Assembly (NCBI RefSeq): GCF_006345805.1
Contig: NC_043000.1
Location: 110,732,001 to 110,796,000 of the forward strand
Source: Octopus sinensis
Lineage: Eukaryota
Direction of reading: 5' to 3'
DNA length: 64,000 bases
Part shown: in pieces, positions 1,589 through 54,539 of the stretch
How positions within the stretch are numbered: position 1 is the stretch's first letter
Layout of the letters: each line of letters opens with the position of its first letter
Notes under the pieces: generated by a model
Seen by the model: the letters and a program-made list of their open reading frames with translations, nothing else
Told to the model about the DNA's origin: nothing
Databases searched by the model: none
Translations under genes and position numbers: made by a program

Positions 1589-2697
1589 GTAAGAATAAAT
1601 TTTCTAAAATGGTGAGGGAAATTCAAAGAATTACTTTGGTCCAATGGTAAAGCATCTCTCATGTTTGCAGGTGATGTGGATTCAGACCCAGTAGGCAGAC
1701 TTGATTTATTACATTTTTTTTTAACATTCAAAGAGTTCTTTATTTTCATCCAATATTTATATGCCGTTATTTATAGCTTATTCTGATTCGAGATCCACTG
1801 TTCTCAAAAAGAAGGTATATATATAGATATGTGTGTGTGTGTGTGTGTTTGTGCATTTATAACAAATGCCATACTGATGCTATAGTTATCGTTCTCCTCT
1901 TCTCTCTCTCTCTACACACACATACACATATACTGCACTTATATATAAATATATGCATCTGTGTGTGTGCAAGTGCATTGTGTGTTACCCATACACATAA
2001 CATACATAACATATAGAGTAACTGGGTGACGAAATGAATCCCACTCGCTGCCGTTATATTATGTCATTCGTTTGCACTGAGTTAAAAGGATTAACCAGTT
2101 TAAATTGGTGAATGATAATAGAAGTTTGACATACTAGTTTCCCCAAAAGCACAAGTAGTCATTAACTTAACCAATTTTCATGGTTTCATTATATCGCTAC
2201 CAATTCTTATCAAGGTCAGGCGTATACAATTACATATATTTCATAAATTAGGTTGTCTTCTTTTTATTTTATTTTCTTTTTGGCAACCAGACCCAAGTAT
2301 GAGACATGGCTATATCGCGTAGGTCTGCTTAACAGGAGTACATATATATATATATATATTGTATTTCTTGCATTGGTCCTTCAGAAGAAGGGAGCGTCGT
2401 AGTTTAGGAAAAAAGAGACAGAAATAAAGAAATAATACATCTGTGTTTGAGCTGTGGTGGTGTCATGGCAGAAAGAGAATCTGCCATTGTGGACAACCTT
2501 CTCATAAAAATATTCAACACAATCATTTTTCAGAAAGCCATTCACATTATTCACGACCAAATATATAATTGCTTTTAATTGTTTTATGCAAGAAAACCCT
2601 AGGATATAGAGAGGCGAAGCGAAAGTGTGTGCGTGGCGCCCGCCCGGGGCAGTGGTCTGTTCCATGCATATATATCTCTATCTGATGCTCACACACA

Positions 2698-2760
<63 letters not shown>

Positions 2761-2773
2761 CACACACACACAC

Positions 2774-2809
<36 letters not shown>

Positions 2810-3077
2810 AGATACATATATAGGGTAGCGAATATTCGTTATAAATATCACCACCGGTGACCTAGCATGTATAAATATAGTCAATAGACAACTTATTAAA
2901 AAATTATAACAGATAATAATGGGAGACGTGTTATCTTGTCTCTGAATTATAAGTTAGTTATTGAGGCCGGTTACTGACAAGAATTCGCCTGGCGGATAAT
3001 ATTGTTTGTTAAATTACCTATTAAAAGGTGGAAGATAATATTATTTGCAAAAGGAATTTGAAACCATTGTATAACAG

Positions 3078-4015
3078 CAAATAAAAATAACAAGGTAAAA
3101 GTTTTTATTTTCCATTCCTTCGAAAATTGCTATTAAATCGTGGTTTTGGCCGCGTTGGCTGCTTCTTCTAGCATGTAAAAAATACCTGTTAAAGGGTAGT
3201 TTTCTTTTGTGTTTAAATGTACACTATTTAAAAATGTTTATATATATATATATATTTATATATATATGTATATATATATATAGAGAGAGAGAGAGTGAGA
3301 GAATGTATATGTGAAATACAACACGACATTGAAGTTTAAACTCAGTCGTATGTCATGAGCCATACCTGCACTCGTGAGCCATACCTGCACTCAGGAGCCA
3401 TACCTGCACTCAGGAGCCATACCTGCACTCATGAGCCATACCTGCACTCATGAGCCAGTAGGCTGTTTGTTCGGCCTTGCCCAGTATCAGCGACACAAGC
3501 CGATATGGCCGTACTTTGCCATTATAGACAAACAGCCACGTCTTGTCTCAACCAGCTGTAATTCTAGTTTGCCGGATTAACTTGTAACTACGCGTGCACC
3601 CCACACCACTACCACATACACACAACCACACTCACTAGCACACATACACACACACACACAGCCACACTCACTAGCACACATGCGCGCACACATTTTTAAT
3701 AGCCGTTTTTATTTAATCCGAGTATTGTTTGATGGAGTGTGGTTGCCATTTTGAAAGCAACGATATATTTTTAAAACGTGTCGATAAATAATATTTGTCC
3801 CAGTAAATGGTGTAAAATGAAACCACGAGGGATTTTCTTCAATGATGAAATGTGTTGGGGGTTTTTCATAAGAATTCCTGGGATGGAGGCAAGTAATATG
3901 ACTCAATGTGTGTGTGTGTGTGTGTGTGTGCCTAGTGAATGGCAAGCCCTTCAGCAATCCCTGTATTATTGGCAATCAACTAATAATGTGTATGTGTGTG
4001 TGTGTAGTTAGATAA

Positions 4016-4048
<33 letters not shown>

Positions 4049-4051
4049 CAT

Positions 4052-4127
<76 letters not shown>

Positions 4128-4130
4128 ATA
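3078..4130. repeat. Tandem segmental duplication, copy 1 (short minisatellite allele)
   Basis: Starts CAAATAAAAATAACAAGGTAAAAG as at 4244 and is colinear with 4244-7573 through the same unique blocks and microsatellites. Confidence 0.93.
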
Positions 4131-4243
4131 GGTAGGTAGGTATATAACTTTTTATTGTGGCCACACAGGGCTAAACACAGAAGAAAAATGGACGAAATAC
4201 AATGTAGAGTTTTTTCTTTTCGAGGTGGGATGGGTGGGACATA

Positions 4244-6974
4244 CAAATAAAAATAACAAGGTAAAAGTTTTTATTTTTCATTCCTTCAAAAATTGCTATT
4301 AAATCGTGGTTTTGGCCGTGTTGGCTGCTTCTTCTAGCATGTAAAAATTACCTGTTAAAAGGTAGTTTTCTTTTGTATTTAATTGCACACTATTTAAAAA
4401 TTTATATATATATATATATATATTTAGAGAGAGAAAGAGAGAGAGAGAGAATGTATATGTGAAATACAACGCGACATTGAAGTTTAAACTCAGTCGTATG
4501 TCATGAGCCATACCTGCACCCGTGACCCATACCTGCACTCATGAGCCATACATGCACTCATGAGCCATATTTTCACTCATGAGCCATAACTGCACTCATG
4601 AGTCATACCTGCACTCATAAGTCATACCTGCACTCATGAGCCATATCTGCACTCATGAGTCATACCTGCACTCATGAGCCATACCTGCACTCATGAGTCA
4701 TACCTGAACTCATGAGCCATACCTGCACTCATGAGTCATACTTGCACTCATGAGCCATATCTGTACTCATGAGCCATACCTGCACTCGTGAGTCATACCT
4801 GCACTCGTGAGTCATAACTGCACTCATGAACCATGCACGCACTCATGAGTCATATCTGCACTCATGAGCCATAGCTGCACTCATGAACCATACCTGCACT
4901 CATGAGACATATCTGAACTCATGAGCCATATCTGCACTCATGAGCTATACCTGCACTCATGAGCCCTATCTGCACTCATGAGGCATACCTGCACTCATGT
5001 GCCATATCTTCACTCGTGTGCCATACCTGCACTCATGAGTCAATCCTGCACTCGTGAGCCATATGTACACTCATGAGTCATACATGCACTCATGAGCCAT
5101 ACCTGCACTCATGAGCCACACCTGGACTCATGAACCATAGCTGCACTAATGAGCCATATCTGTATTCATGAGCCATACCTGCACTCATGAGCCATATCTG
5201 CACTCGTGAGCCATACCTGCACGCATGAGCCATATCTGCACTCATGAGCCATACCTGTATTCATGTGCCTTACCTGCACTCATGAGTCATACCTGAACTC
5301 ATGAGCCATACCTGCACTCATGAACCATACCTGCACTCATGAGCCATATCTGCACTCATAATCCATACCTGCATCATGAGTCATACTTGCACTCGTGAGC
5401 CATAACTGCACACATGAGTCATACCCGAACTCATGAGCTATATCTGCACTCATGAGCCATACCTGCACTCGTGAGCCATACCTGCACTCATGAGCCATAT
5501 TCTGCACTCATGAGTCATATCTGCACTCATGAGCCATAGCTGCACTCATGAACCATACCTGCATTCATGAGGCATATCTGCACTCATAAGTCATGCCTGC
5601 ACTCATGAGCCATACCTGCACTCATGAACCATACCTGCATTCATGAGCCATACCTGCAATCATGAGTCATACCTGCACGCATGAGACATACCGACACTCA
5701 TGAACCATAGCTTTACTCATGAGTCATACCCGCACTCATGAGCCATACCTGCACTCATGAGTCATAACTGCACTCATGAGCCATATCTGCACTCATGAGC
5801 TATACCTGCACTCATGAGCCCTCTCTGCACTCATGAGGCATACCTGCACTCATGAGTCATACCTGCACCCGTGAGCCATATCTTCACTCGTGTGCCATAC
5901 CTGCTCTCATGAGTCAATCCTGCACTCGTGAGCCATATCTGCACTCATGAGCCATATGTGCACTCATGAGCCATACCTGCACTCATGAGCCATACCTGCA
6001 CTCATGAGTCATACCTGCACACATGAGCCATACATGCACTCATGTCATACCTGCACTCATGAGCCACACCTGCACTCATGAGCCATATCTGCACTCATGA
6101 ACCATATCTGCACTCACGAGTCATACCTGGACTCCTGAGTCATACCTGCACTCGTGAGTCATACCTGCACTCATGAGTCATATCTGCACTCATGAGCCAT
6201 ACCTGCACTCATCAGCCATACCTGCAGTCATCAGCCATAGCGGCACTCATCAGCCATGGCTGTACTCAAGTGAAATCCCTGCACTCATAAACGATGCTGC
6301 ACACTTGAGCCATGCCTGCACTAAAGTGTAATGACTGCTTACATGGTCGATAGCTGCACTCATGTCCCGCACCAGCTCTCAAGAGCAACGCCTGCACTAA
6401 TGAGCTATGCTGCACTCATAAGCCATGCGGGTACTCACGTTACATACCTGCACTCATCAGCCATACCTGTATTCAAGAGTAATGCCTGCACTCATCAGCC
6501 ATGCTGGACTCAGGAGCCATAGTTGCACTCAAGTGTAATGTCTGCACTCATCAGCCATGCTGCACTCAGGAGCCATGCTTGCACTCAAGAGTAATGCCTG
6601 CACTCATCAGCCATGCTGCACTCAGGAGCCATGGTTGCACTCAAGAGTAATGTCTGCACTCACGAGCCATGCCCGCACCGAAGAACAATTCCCATTCCCA
6701 ATGGCCATGTTTGCACTCATGAGCCATGCCTGTACCATGGACTAAGGTCACACCCTCATGAGCCATTCCTGCACCAAGTTAGGTAGAATGGGTAGGAGAA
6801 AGTAAGCTGTTTGTTTGGTCTTGCCAAGTTTCAGCGGCGCAAGCCAATATGGCCGTACTTTGCCATTATAGACAGTCAAGTCTTGTCTCAACCAGCTGTA
6901 ATTCGAGTTTGCCGGAGTAACTTGTAACTACGCGTGCACCCCCCCCCTACCACACACACAACCACACTCACTAG

Positions 6975-17009: not shown

Positions 17010-18109
17010 TAACTTAGACTTAGATAACTTAGAAAGGTTTTGGCCAGTATTGGCCCAGGCCATGTCTAACTTAATAGCACCACCTGGCGAAGTCTTTCAA
17101 TTCAGGATTTGGGCACCAAGGCCCATTCGAGCAGAGAGTTATTGTTTGCGGAGACATATCCGGGTGTGGGTGGTTTGTCCGGGACTGTTTGAAGGAATTT
17201 GTCCAAAGACTTCTTGAATTTTGTGTGGTCAGTTTCTTTTTTGACGTGTCCTGGTGTAATGTTGAAGAGAGCGGGTCCAATTGAGGTGAAATAGTTGTGT
17301 CGTATTGTCGTTATGTGATGCGATTTAGATTTTTTTTGTGGATGGATGGCACGTGGTCCAAGCCTTGGATGTATTTTTAAGGTGATGCCAACATCATTCG
17401 GACAGTGCTGATGGAATATTTTCCACATCATACAGATAATGTAGCGTTCACGGCGTCTTTGGAGTGAATACAGTTTCAGCTTCTCTAGTCTACCCCAGTA
17501 GTCAAGGTCTGACATGCCATCTATCTTTTTTGTGATTGACCTTTGGGGAGCTTCAATTCTCATAATATTTTGTTTTGTGTAGGGAGACCACAGTGGACAG
17601 CAGTATTCAAGGTGGGGTCGGGCAAAAGTGGAGAAGAGAAGGATAATAGTGTGGGAATCTCTCGACTGGAAGGTTCTGAGAATCCAGGAACACATTCTGC
17701 GGGCCATGTCAACTTTGCTGCTTATATGTGTAGCCCAGCTTATGTTGTTGTCCACTGTTACTCCCAAGTCACTGATGTTGTTGGACGCCAGGAGAATTTC
17801 TCCAGAAGGAAGGGAGTATGGGAGTTTCAGGGCGTCCTCCCTTCCAAAGTTGATCAGTTCGAATTTGTCTTCGTTTAGCAACATGTTATTCTTTTCCGCC
17901 CATTGGACAACAGCCAGTAGGTCTGACTGAAGGCTTATTCGGTCATCCACGCCATTGATGACCTTCTGGAGCTTGGAATCATCAGCGAAGGTTCTGATGT
18001 TACTGTGTTTGATGGTGTCAGTAATATCATTTATGTAGACGATGAAGAGAAGTGGGCCCAACACAGTGCCTTGTGGGACACCACTGCTGACTTTGGCTGG
18101 GCTGGATTT
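17010..18109 (-). mobile_element. 5'-truncated CR1/L2-group LINE; C-terminal half of reverse transcriptase in an open frame (17102-18064)
   Basis: SGVPQGTVLGPLLFIVYINDI, FADD catalytic motif, DLGV, RPHLEYCCPLWSP, LYSLQRRRERY; short CTAAGT tandem tail. Confidence 0.93.
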
Positions 18110-18118
18110 GACTATATA

Positions 18119-18526
18119 TACTCTTTTACTCTTTTATTTGTTTCAGTCATTTGACTGTGGCCATGCTGGAGCACCGCCTTTAATCGAGCAACTCGACCCC
18201 GGGACTTATTCTTTTGTAAACCCAGTACTTATTCTATCGGTCTCTTTTGCCGAACCGCTAAGTTACGGGGACATAAACACACCAGCATCGGCTGTCAAGC
18301 AATGCTACGGGGACAAACACAGACACACAAACACACACATGCATACATATATATACATATATACGACGGGCTTCTTTCAGTTTCCGTCTACCGAATCCAC
18401 TCACAAGGCTTTGGTCGGCCCGAGGCTATAGTAGAAAACACTTGCCCAAGGTGCCACACAGTGGGACTGAACCCGGAACCATATGGTTGGTAAACAAGCT
18501 ACTTACCACACAGCCACGCCTGCGCC
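18119..18526 (-). mobile_element. SINE family B, near full length
   Basis: High similarity to 19008-19438 and 63067-63542; (CTCTTTTA)n tail on the plus strand and an internal (CA)/(TA) microsatellite. Confidence 0.92.
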
Positions 18527-41874: not shown

Positions 41875-42539
41875 TTTTTTTTTCTTTCAAATTTGCTTCC
41901 ATTTCTTGCCGAGCGTCTTCCCGACTCCTAGGGCAAAGAAACTCATAATATACATTGATAGGCCATTAAACCAAACTCAATAGTTCGTTCATTTTTTTTT
42001 TTTTTTAAGGTTAAATTAAAATCCATGGGCAGTAACAGCTCTCACAGCGACAATGCTCTTCTCAATACGTGTGATGTACCAGTTAAGACAATCTTTTGCA
42101 CTTCTTGCAGGGATGGTAAGCCAGGGATCATTTTCATATAATTTTCGGTTCCCTTCTTGATCATTCCTAGTGCTCCTACGATCACTGGTATTGTAACCGC
42201 CTTGAGATGCCACATTTTCTCAATTTCAATGAGCAGGTCTTTATATTTTCTGAGCTTGTCAAACTCTTTCGCCGATATATTATGATCATAGGGGATGCTC
42301 ATGTCGATCAATAAGCAAACTTTATTGTTTTTGTCTTTCACAACAATATCTGGTTTATTGGCTTTGATGGTTCGGTCTGTATGTACTGGAAAGTCCCACA
42401 GAATCGTTACATTTTCTCCTTCAGTTACTGCTTCAGGGTGGTGATTATACCACTTGTCGGCAGTTTTGATATTGTAATGCCGACTTATTAGACAGTGTAG
42501 ATATTGGCCAACTCTGTCATGTCTTAATTTATACTCCAC

Positions 42540-52229: not shown

Positions 52230-52775
52230 ACGGGCGAAATGCTTAGCGGTATTTTGTCTGCCGTTACGTTCTGAGTTCAAATTCCGCCGAGGTCGACTTT
52301 GCCTTTCATCCTTTCGGGGTAGATTAAATAAGTACCAGTTACGCACTGGGGTCGAGGAAATCGACTTAATCCGTTTGTCTGTCTTTGTTTGTCTCCTATG
52401 TGTTTAGCCCCTTGTGGGTAGTAAAGAAATAGGTATTTCGTCAGTCTTTACGTTCTGAGTTCAAGTTTCTCCAAGGTCGACTTTGCCTTTCATCCTTTCG
52501 GGGTCGATAAATTAAGTACCGGTTACGCACTGGGGCCGATGTAATCGACTTAATCCCTTTGTCTGTCCTTGTTTGTCCCCTCTGTGTTTAGCCCCTTGTG
52601 GACAGTAAAGAAATAGATATTTCGTCGGTCTTTACGTTCTGAGTTCAAATTCCGCCAAGGTCGACTTTGCTTTTTGGGGTCGATAAATTAAGTACCAGTT
52701 GCGCACTGGGATCGTCTAAACGACTGCCCCCTCTCACCAAAATTTCGGACCTTGTGCCTAGAGTAGAAAAGAATT
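52230..52775 (+). mobile_element. Tandem trimer of SINE family A
   Basis: Three consecutive TACGTTCTGAGTTCAA...GGTCGACTTTGC units joined through AAAGAAATAG-RTATTTCGTC. Confidence 0.9.
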
Positions 52776-53741
52776 ATTGAATGGTGGTGAGCAGGAAGAG
52801 TTGTTATGGCGTCGAGTAGAATGCATTGCAGTATTCTGGTTTTCCAGTTGTATGAGATCGAATCCAACCAGAGTCAATCCTACATTTCGTAGCCGGTAGT
52901 CTTAGGGAGCGATTCCATTATTCTTTGGCAGAAATCGGTTGTATTCAGATCTCGAGAAGAGATGTGGTGCGACTAGTTTGAAAAAATCAGCCAAGACCAG
53001 TTTCTCTAAAGGTATAGGCACAATAAGCAGTTGCCCCTTGGTGACCCGTTGCTAACCAATGTATGTGTGATTGTGTATGGTAGAGATCTTGTGAACTCTT
53101 TTGCCCAGGAGGGGAAGGGCTGTAATGCTGTTAAGATGATCCCGCTCGAGACGGTGTCACAACGGTGCTTCTTCGAGCCCTTCAGTGGTTGAGGACTCAA
53201 AAAAGAGATTTACAATATTCTGAACGATTGTTTGTTACCGTTGTCGACAAAATTATGGTAAGATCGATTTAGCAATTATCCAGTTTGGAATGAAGAGGTG
53301 AAACGGTGTAGTGTGTGAGTTCGAAAAGGGTTTTAGTTTTAACCGACTTGTAGCCTGTTCCACGAGATAGTATTCACATTTGAATACATATTTCTTTATT
53401 GGCCATAGGGGGCTAAATATAGAGTGGACAAACAAGGACAGACAAAGAGATTAAGTCAATTACATCGACTTAATCCCTGGTACTTATTTAATCGACCCCT
53501 AAAGGATGAAAGGCAAAGTCGACCTCGACGGAATTTGAACTCAAAACGTAGCAGTAGCAGAGGAAATACCTCTAAGTATTTCGCTCGGCATGCTAACGAT
53601 AAAAAAAATAAACATTTTGTATCACAATAGAAAAATCATCTTATGTTTTTACAAGTAGTTTTTTTTCTCTACTTTTCCACTCTCGCAAGAAAACAATACT
53701 TTAAAAACCATAGCCATATTTGGATTATAGCAGACAGCGTA

Positions 53742-53972
53742 GGCGGCGAACTGGCAGAAACGTTAACACGCCGGGCGAAATGCTTTGTGGTATTTCGTCC
53801 GTCGCTGCGTTCTGAGTTCAAATTCCGCCGAGGTCGACTTTGCCTTTCATCCTTTCGGGGTCGATAAATTAAGTACCAGTTACGCACTGGGGTCGATGTA
53901 ATCGACTAAATCCGTTTGTCTGTCCTTGTTTGTCCCCTCTGTGTTTAGCCCCTTGTGGGTAGTAAAGAAATA
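53742..53972 (+). mobile_element. SINE family A, full length with TSD
   Basis: TSD TATAGCAGACAGCG(T/G)A at 53726-53741 and 53973-53988. Confidence 0.92.
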
Positions 53973-53991: not shown

Positions 53992-54539
53992 CAGTGCTAC
54001 TCAAAGTACGTGGCGGTACGCGGCAAGTTTCCAGAAAAGAAAGAAACATTATAAAATGCTTATGTAATATTGTATAATTTGTTTACAAAATAAATATAAC
54101 TTAAAAAAATTGTCAACTTTTATTATATTCATTATATATATCATGGAGATGTACTTGCATGGCAAGTGACCTGATCTGAGATCGTGTGCTGAAACAAAAA
54201 CAATTGCAGTTTGGAAGGTGTTTGTAAGCCATATAAAAACACACAAGAACTGTTAGATTCACTTCAGTATTTAAATCTAATTTGCCAAAATATTTTCATT
54301 GCTTTGAGACTGCGACCTGTTCACTGACAGAATTTTGTCAGTGAACAGGTCGCGGTCTTAAAGCGACGAAAATATTTTGGCAAATTAAATTTAAATGTTG
54401 AAGGGAATTTAACGGTTTTTGTGATTATATTATATTGTTTCTGGTATAATTCAATATTACTAAGAAATATTACCGGTCCCTGGCACATTGGAAGCAAAAG
54501 ACTATCGGTACGCCACATCAGATAGTTTGAGAAGCACTG
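53992..54539. mobile_element. hAT-like MITE containing a nested palindromic insertion
   Basis: CAGTGCTACTCAAA ... TTTGAGAAGCACTG; 8-bp TSD GCGGAGAC / GCGTAGAC. Confidence 0.82.
54334..54384 (+). ncRNA. Hammerhead-like motif with G3-C8 swapped core (mirror copy on the minus strand at 54281-54331)
   Basis: TTTGTCA-GTGAACA-G-GTCGC-GGTCTTAAA-GCGAC-GAAA-ATA-TTT-TGGCAAA: 7-bp stem I, 5-bp stem II, palindromic stem III AATATT; activity unproven. Confidence 0.5.

Follow-up and report, generated by a model that had tools for sequence, protein, structure and literature searches.

A hammerhead-like motif with a G3-C8 core pair in a Penelope-like element repeat of Octopus sinensis

Introduction

The 3-8 core pair of hammerhead ribozymes, normally C3-G8, is known from a crystal structure and from engineered swaps. 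Rescue by a swapped 3-8 pair is stated in passages of PMC8495972, PMC3884650 and PMC11167929, the last of which concerns a Penelope-like element (PLE) hammerhead that the C3G/G8C exchange partly restores; in nature, U3-A8 is so far the only 3-8 variant in the portions of PMC3088659 and PMC4209133 covered. An imperfect palindrome in the Octopus sinensis genome (contig NC_043000.1, within a 64,000-nt window spanning positions 110,732,001 to 110,796,000, the whole stretch analysed here) raises the question of whether nature has also made the G3-C8 exchange. An initial annotation read each arm as a hammerhead-like fold in which the CUGANGA core is replaced by GUGAACA, and proposed two back-to-back, repeat-borne ribozymes. 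Here we ask what the repeat is, whether its core descends from canonical hammerheads, how the palindrome arose and whether the motif is likely to cleave.

One intact motif in a probable 5'-inverted insertion

The palindrome stands as first described: centred at 54332/54333, it consists of two 91-nt arms (54242-54332 and 54333-54423) that are 87% complementary, with a spacer of 0, and as a hairpin it has a folding energy of -121.7 kcal/mol. The claim that both arms form hammerhead-like folds survives for the right arm, in which folding gives stems I and II at -13.2 kcal/mol and which is the sole match when the 64-kb window is scanned generically for hammerheads; it does not hold for the degraded left arm, in which the 3' strand of stem II reads GCAAT, stem I has one mismatch and the minimum-energy fold, at -4.9, differs from the hammerhead fold. 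Nor do the palindrome ends mark the extent of the repeat, since the left copy runs past them to 54145, covers unit positions 37-227 (87% to the unit) and contains the first codons of the element's ORF, with the ATG at 54232-54230, as judged from the ORF start known in locus L110 (Table 1). At this locus Rfam returns sub-threshold miRNA and snoRNA hits only and no hammerhead, and it likewise misses the canonical-core sisters described below; a PDB sequence search gave no match. The locus is probably a short 5'-inverted insertion of a PLE pLTR and a dead copy, and the self-complementary AATT at its junction may have been the point of a template switch.

Table 1. Features of the palindrome locus, in window coordinates
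Feature	Position	Strand	Basis or remark
Stem I, right arm	54334-54340/54378-54384	+	sequence and fold
GTGAACA, right arm	54341-54347 (G3 54341, C8 54346)	+	sequence
Extra G, right arm	54348	+	sequence
Stem II GTCGC/GCGAC, right arm	54349-54353/54363-54367	+	sequence and fold
GAAA, right arm	54368-54371	+	sequence
Palindrome AATATT, right arm	54371-54376 (U16.1 = 54376)	+	sequence
U17, right arm; predicted cut 3' of U17	54377	+	sequence
Intact type-I hammerhead-like motif	54334..54384	+	sequence and fold; homologous layout in relatives
Degraded second motif copy, G3 at 54324	54281..54331	-	stem II altered twice, stem I once
Inverted copy of PLE pLTR unit (unit about 39-227)	54145..54332	-	similarity to unit
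Direct pLTR unit copy (unit about 39-129)	54333..54423	+	shorter than most copies at its end
Fold-back junction, with its midpoint in the self-complementary AATT that the unit has immediately 5' of stem I	54324..54341		sequence compared with other copies
TA-rich flank at unit 3' end, the usual insertion context of the family	54120..54144		sequence, other copies

Other repeats lie elsewhere in the window. Several copies of a dispersed repeat of ~184-200 nt, partly tandem and SINE-like by appearance, occupy 52231-52714, 53383-53557 and 53772-53972, and two non-LTR retrotransposon fragments lie on the minus strand, one at 17102-18133 with an RVT_1 frame and one at 42042-42539, whose frame has no Pfam hit and, by motif, resembles a restriction-like endonuclease end.

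The repeat and its host element

The motif is repeat-borne, as proposed: a 20-base core pattern in which positions 3 and 8 could be any base, searched across the 2.7-Gb genome, has 6,114 exact matches, and the reversed pattern, used as a control, has 0. G3-C8 is present in 93/100 among the matches listed, the other 7/100 carrying a single change, and the C3-G8 version of the family's 20-base context has 0 matches genome-wide; in that context the literal CUGANGA core is absent, the family's own core being GUGAACA. Searching with sequence located 3' of the cut site gives 7,221 genome matches. In an expression look-up, contigs of 4 runs contain the family, contigs being unable to show ends or strand, and no RNA source is listed for it. 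A multiply duplicated, internally deleted copy (L034, L047, L058-L060) joins unit 180 directly to mid-ORF and has a 3-nt deletion in the ribozyme core.

Comparison of longer copies indicates that the repeat serves as pLTR to a Penelope-like element encoding a reverse transcriptase (RT) together with a GIY-YIG endonuclease at the C terminus, and the Penelope-type assignment of the initial annotation, which invoked a palindromic stem III, is borne out by the ORF that the unit flanks and by the AATATT and AATT palindromes of the family. The repeat runs into an RT-like frame in L047 and L059 and follows a GIY-YIG frame in L053, and L110 displays the full order of pLTR (2023-2249), ORF (2157-5368, one frameshift), 3' UTR and second pLTR (6384-6550), with the ATG ~55 nt 3' of the predicted cut. 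The frame in L100 is open for 1,042 aa and has a C-x3-C-x2-C motif before the endonuclease. GIY-YIG scores above the Pfam cut-off and RVT_1 is weak (E 0.033); the best protein homologue is annotated "reverse transcriptase domain", Atlas hits carry RVT_1/GIY-YIG/HTH_animal, and a protein labelled Octopus vulgaris matches the genome at up to 99%. The structural traits of EN+ PLEs are present, namely pLTRs, partial tandems, 5'-inverted copies and a tail, and insertions have (TA)n or TA-rich flanks. Long TACA/TA microsatellites lie in the element's 3' UTR (L110:5430-6380; L067:7320-8175), immediately before the pLTR begins, and are therefore spread by the element.

Probable homology with canonical hammerheads

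The anatomy of the motif is that of a type-I hammerhead: helices I and II flank the core and covary between families, and the core has a Watson-Crick 3-8 pair, U4 G5 A6, A9, GAAA, U16.1 and H17. An additional nucleotide follows A9, and G10.1-C11.1 and a palindromic helix III are present too; these are the traits ascribed to PLE minimal hammerheads in the covered part of PMC4209133. Two features that had been counted as weaknesses lose their force in the light of the same source, in which an unpaired nucleotide after A9 is a PLE hammerhead hallmark and UU triplets, like that in the UUU here, fill the supplementary alignment.

Conservation of GTGAACA/GAAA with stem covariation, which the initial annotation had proposed as a check, is found in part: covariation is seen between families, and within the family the copies drift. 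Substitutions in subfamily A are equally frequent in the core (18/436, 4.1%) and the flank (106/2626, 4.0%), and subfamily B has 4/320 and 14/1834, respectively; the loop figure for subfamily B probably takes in intermediate subfamilies. Since subfamily A copies differ equally at core and flank, core drift across copies is no valid refutation, and only comparison between families is informative.

Relatives bear out the proposal that GUGAACA is a core with both C3 and G8 exchanged and the pair kept, for they have C-G at the same place. A sister PLE recovered through its protein sequence alone (55% aa identity) has the motif CTGATGC-G-GTCAC-loop-GTGAC-GAAA-GAAC-TY in 37/40 rows, with C3-G8 at the corresponding place and, in the two copies measured, 525-564 nt past the stop. 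Searching for C3-G8 in the same layout gives 4,159 matches (control, 9); among them are CTGATGA and CTGAAGA families, canonical throughout, in which the downstream pLTR resembles, by eye, that of the G3-C8 family. A metagenome scan yielded 3 loci and reached the 3' UTR in one of them only, L329 (42% aa), where CTGAAGA-C-stem-GAAA-TTAA-TA with a 5-bp stem I and a palindromic ATTAAT lies 3' of the GIY-YIG frame (L329:1683). In an older lineage, assembled through DNA similarity, G3-C8 is present in 22/29 copies together with N7 = C, a different, 7-nt loop II, a G-C pair in stem I where the young family has U-A, and AATT where the young family has AATATT, the two differing by 2 nt and both palindromic; G3-C8 copies of yet older appearance have 6-nt loops. 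UGA, GAAA and U16.1 are fixed across lineages. In a tree built from the sequence lying 3' of the ribozyme, the 10 G-C rows fall on one side of a branch and require one change, with weak support (70/66).

Pair counts agree with this picture. In 13 rows, pairing stands at 95%, with both-side changes at 1.1-2.1, 3-8 and stem II, and 3-8 is paired in 18/18 rows (G-C 8, C-G 6, U-A 4); both sets were hand-picked after pattern searches, and the searches behind the 18 rows fixed positions 3 and 8, so the sister PLE, L329 and the older lineage carry the weight. Among 28 non-family-1 rows, U-A occurs in 14, G-C in 1 and a mismatch in 13, which makes the U-A families less secure; some U3-A8 relatives could be the product of double transitions. 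We conclude from these alignments that the motif is almost certainly homologous to hammerheads, and the comparison of lineages shows the G3-C8 swap to be old and stable in its own.

Several further hammerhead-like sequences came to light. L180:4646 and its relatives form a young, abundant sister PLE lineage with A9C (CTGATGC), older members of which have CTGATGA; A9C appears in the majority of the sister family's 100 listed rows, and in so successful a lineage it possibly reflects loss or weakening of catalysis, even as a natural A9U ribozyme is described as functional in the part of PMC10085705 covered. A separate 364-bp tandem repeat (L206:4265 and 4629, L113:7347 on the minus strand) has a U3-A8 hammerhead-like motif with a CGCG palindromic helix III and looks like a non-LTR retrozyme. 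L242, L256, L258 and L264 are related copies of old age in which the core is U3-A8 and stem I is intact; they possibly belong to further families.

How copies may be made

The palindrome is an ordinary insertion by-product and not a functional pair. Of 30 loci sampled in order of position, 2 were duplicates and were removed, leaving 28 insertions; an inverted partner lies at the 5' side in 17/28 and is absent in 11/28, the whole motif is found in both arms in 7/28, and junctions and arm lengths vary between copies. Arms start at unit 15-33 in 29/45 cases and end at unit 165-185 or 223-232 in 40/45, and both of these 3' end classes lie inside the ORF start. Portions of PMC8557442 describe 5'-inverted copies and tails as usual in PLEs, and the two end classes agree with the tail and internal priming demonstrated for PAc, a Poseidon element of Anolis (Frangieh 2024, PMC11167929, in the passages covered).

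The 5' ends converge on a site at unit 23-27 (L110 about 2043). The 5' region could be scored in 77 copies: upstream read-through is seen in 9, the AG followed by departure from the template in 25, and other kinds of end in 43. Of the 25 non-read-through starts, 14 bear a non-templated G in place of the template's C or T (p about 1e-3 at a 25% background). Because a cap-derived extra G is a signature of a capped transcription start, these residues suggest that transcription begins just upstream of the ribozyme; some of them may derive from the arm in inverted orientation. With CTAAC, pyrimidines and AG, the site resembles a 3' splice site as well, and the ends may instead stem from splicing; no GAG|GT donor was found in the two 3' UTRs checked. 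Copy starts are not piled up at the predicted cut among the 100 matches listed of 7,221: 1/100 starts there cleanly, and 2 more are ambiguous through stem I. Nearly all copies span the predicted cut, which indicates that they were made from uncut RNA.

We posit that a capped RNA begins about 15 nt before stem I and that the element protein primes reverse transcription inside this RNA at unit about 172 or 230, both sites falling within the ORF's initial 100 nt. Uncut RNA would then be copied to its 5' end, where a template switch would often yield the inverted partner. The motif itself is predicted to cut slowly after U17, and only with two copies paired through AAUAUU and/or with help from protein; the AAUAUU duplex is marginal, at -0.2 kcal/mol.

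Does the motif cleave?

We hold it probable that the repeat is a PLE pLTR with a likely dimer-type hammerhead, in which the 3-8 pair is fixed as G3-C8, and that copies arise by the insertion route outlined above. That measurable cleavage would be obtained with dimers or protein has a similarly good chance; in its favour are the compensatory conservation between lineages and the partial rescue of a PLE hammerhead, and of others, by the engineered C3G/G8C exchange. The stronger proposition, that this is the first natural active G3-C8 hammerhead and that an old PLE lineage crossed a two-transversion valley and kept the flipped pair, may be correct and we advance it tentatively, at somewhat less than even confidence. 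The motif could instead be hammerhead-derived and catalytically dead or irrelevant, its fold either retained for protein binding, promoter activity or translation or else merely passed on by inheritance, with G3-C8 as a relic. The derivation of copies from uncut RNA fits such a history, as does A9C in the sister lineage, the spread of which demonstrates that a core change can spread and so weakens the case for selection on catalysis; further, in the passages of PMC11167929 covered, the PAc hammerhead is protein-assisted and not needed for insertion, its catalytic mutants are without effect on insertion and none of the PAc RNA-seq reads end at the cut, and Naiad PLEs thrive without hammerheads (PMC8557442, in part). 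Selection is nonetheless hard to dispense with when a double transversion has retained a tertiary pair across deep lineages in which N7 and loop II changed and UGA, GAAA and U16.1 did not, and we regard a dead or irrelevant hammerhead as unlikely, if deserving of real weight.

The hairpin invites other explanations. The back-to-back layout could itself be functional, with a long read-through hairpin silencing the ribozymes or feeding small-RNA control, since any read-through RNA would fold back and some insertions hold the whole motif in both arms. Such a role is quite improbable: changes in the arms are independent and uncompensated, the left arm is degraded, a ribozyme dimer is impossible between opposite-strand copies, and inverted partners are a known PLE insertion signature (PMC8557442, in part). 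An origin as a MITE or fold-back DNA transposon, or as a microRNA-like hairpin with a chance likeness to hammerheads, would suit the near-perfect 91-bp hairpin and the sub-threshold miRNA hits, yet it has next to no probability given the variable arms and junctions, the insertions without an inverted partner, the RT and GIY-YIG ORF that the unit flanks, and the canonical hammerhead cores at the same site in relatives; this origin is already largely refuted, and the fixed terminal inverted repeats and target-site duplication expected of a MITE or fold-back transposon are lacking, many arms being solo.

If the reading of a selected, cleaving G3-C8 hammerhead is true, related elements within a single genome have C-G, G-C and U-A cores, and selection acts on cleavage in PLEs despite the origin of insertions from uncut RNA. 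With a lineage fixed for G3-C8, the natural covariation of the 3-8 pair would be complete. Searches based on CUGANGA would undercount hammerheads, PLEs scored as lacking one may hold variants, and core-based ribozyme censuses would miss whole lineages. The canonical, A9C and G3-C8 sister cores in one genome form a matched set with which to ask if cutting is required of PLE ribozymes.

Relation to known systems

PLE hammerheads, inverted copies and U3-A8 variants are already known (PMC4209133 and PMC3088659, in part), and what appears to be new in these sequences is a natural, lineage-fixed G3-C8 core, for which priority is uncertain. In the text passages searched, G3-C8 appears in engineered cases only, and a prior report is possible. 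No GUGANCA row was found in the covered portions of the supplementary alignment of PMC4209133, and the covered passages of PMC13282606 do not mention ribozymes.

The element fits the Neptune/Nematis-type EN+ PLEs as described in the covered part of PMC8557442, a placement made by description, in its C-terminal GIY-YIG after CX2-5CxxC, (TA)n targets, partial tandems and 5'-inverted copies. Its ribozyme shares with the metazoan PLE minimal type-I hammerheads (Cervera and de la Pena 2014, PMC4209133, in part) the pLTR location and type-I topology, the extra nucleotide between 9 and 10.1, G10.1-C11.1, the palindromic helix III and the frequent UU triplet, as well as thousands of solo copies and close opposite-strand pairs. 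It differs in its core, which is GUGANCA instead of CUGANGA or UUGANAA; in the extra nucleotide, which is G where the consensus is H, although a Nasonia row there has G; and in stem I, which is 7 bp and not 4-5. Natural U3-A8 cores (Perreault 2011, PMC3088659; the S. mansoni Cercyon PLE, PMC4209133; both in part) are likewise compensatory changes at 3-8, but we infer that U3-A8 would be reached by two transitions via a U-G wobble, whereas G3-C8 requires two transversions via a mismatch. Another parallel, in the passages covered, is PAc (PMC11167929), with which the element shares two 3' end positions inside the ORF start (the tail), AT-rich targets and copies made from uncut RNA. In PAc, the ORF starts inside the ribozyme, in contrast to the ATG downstream of the cut site here, and the two elements differ in the C-x3-C-x2-C knuckle that precedes the endonuclease in the octopus protein. 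The engineered C3G/G8C mutant of PAc, an artificial swap, has the core that is natural in the octopus family.
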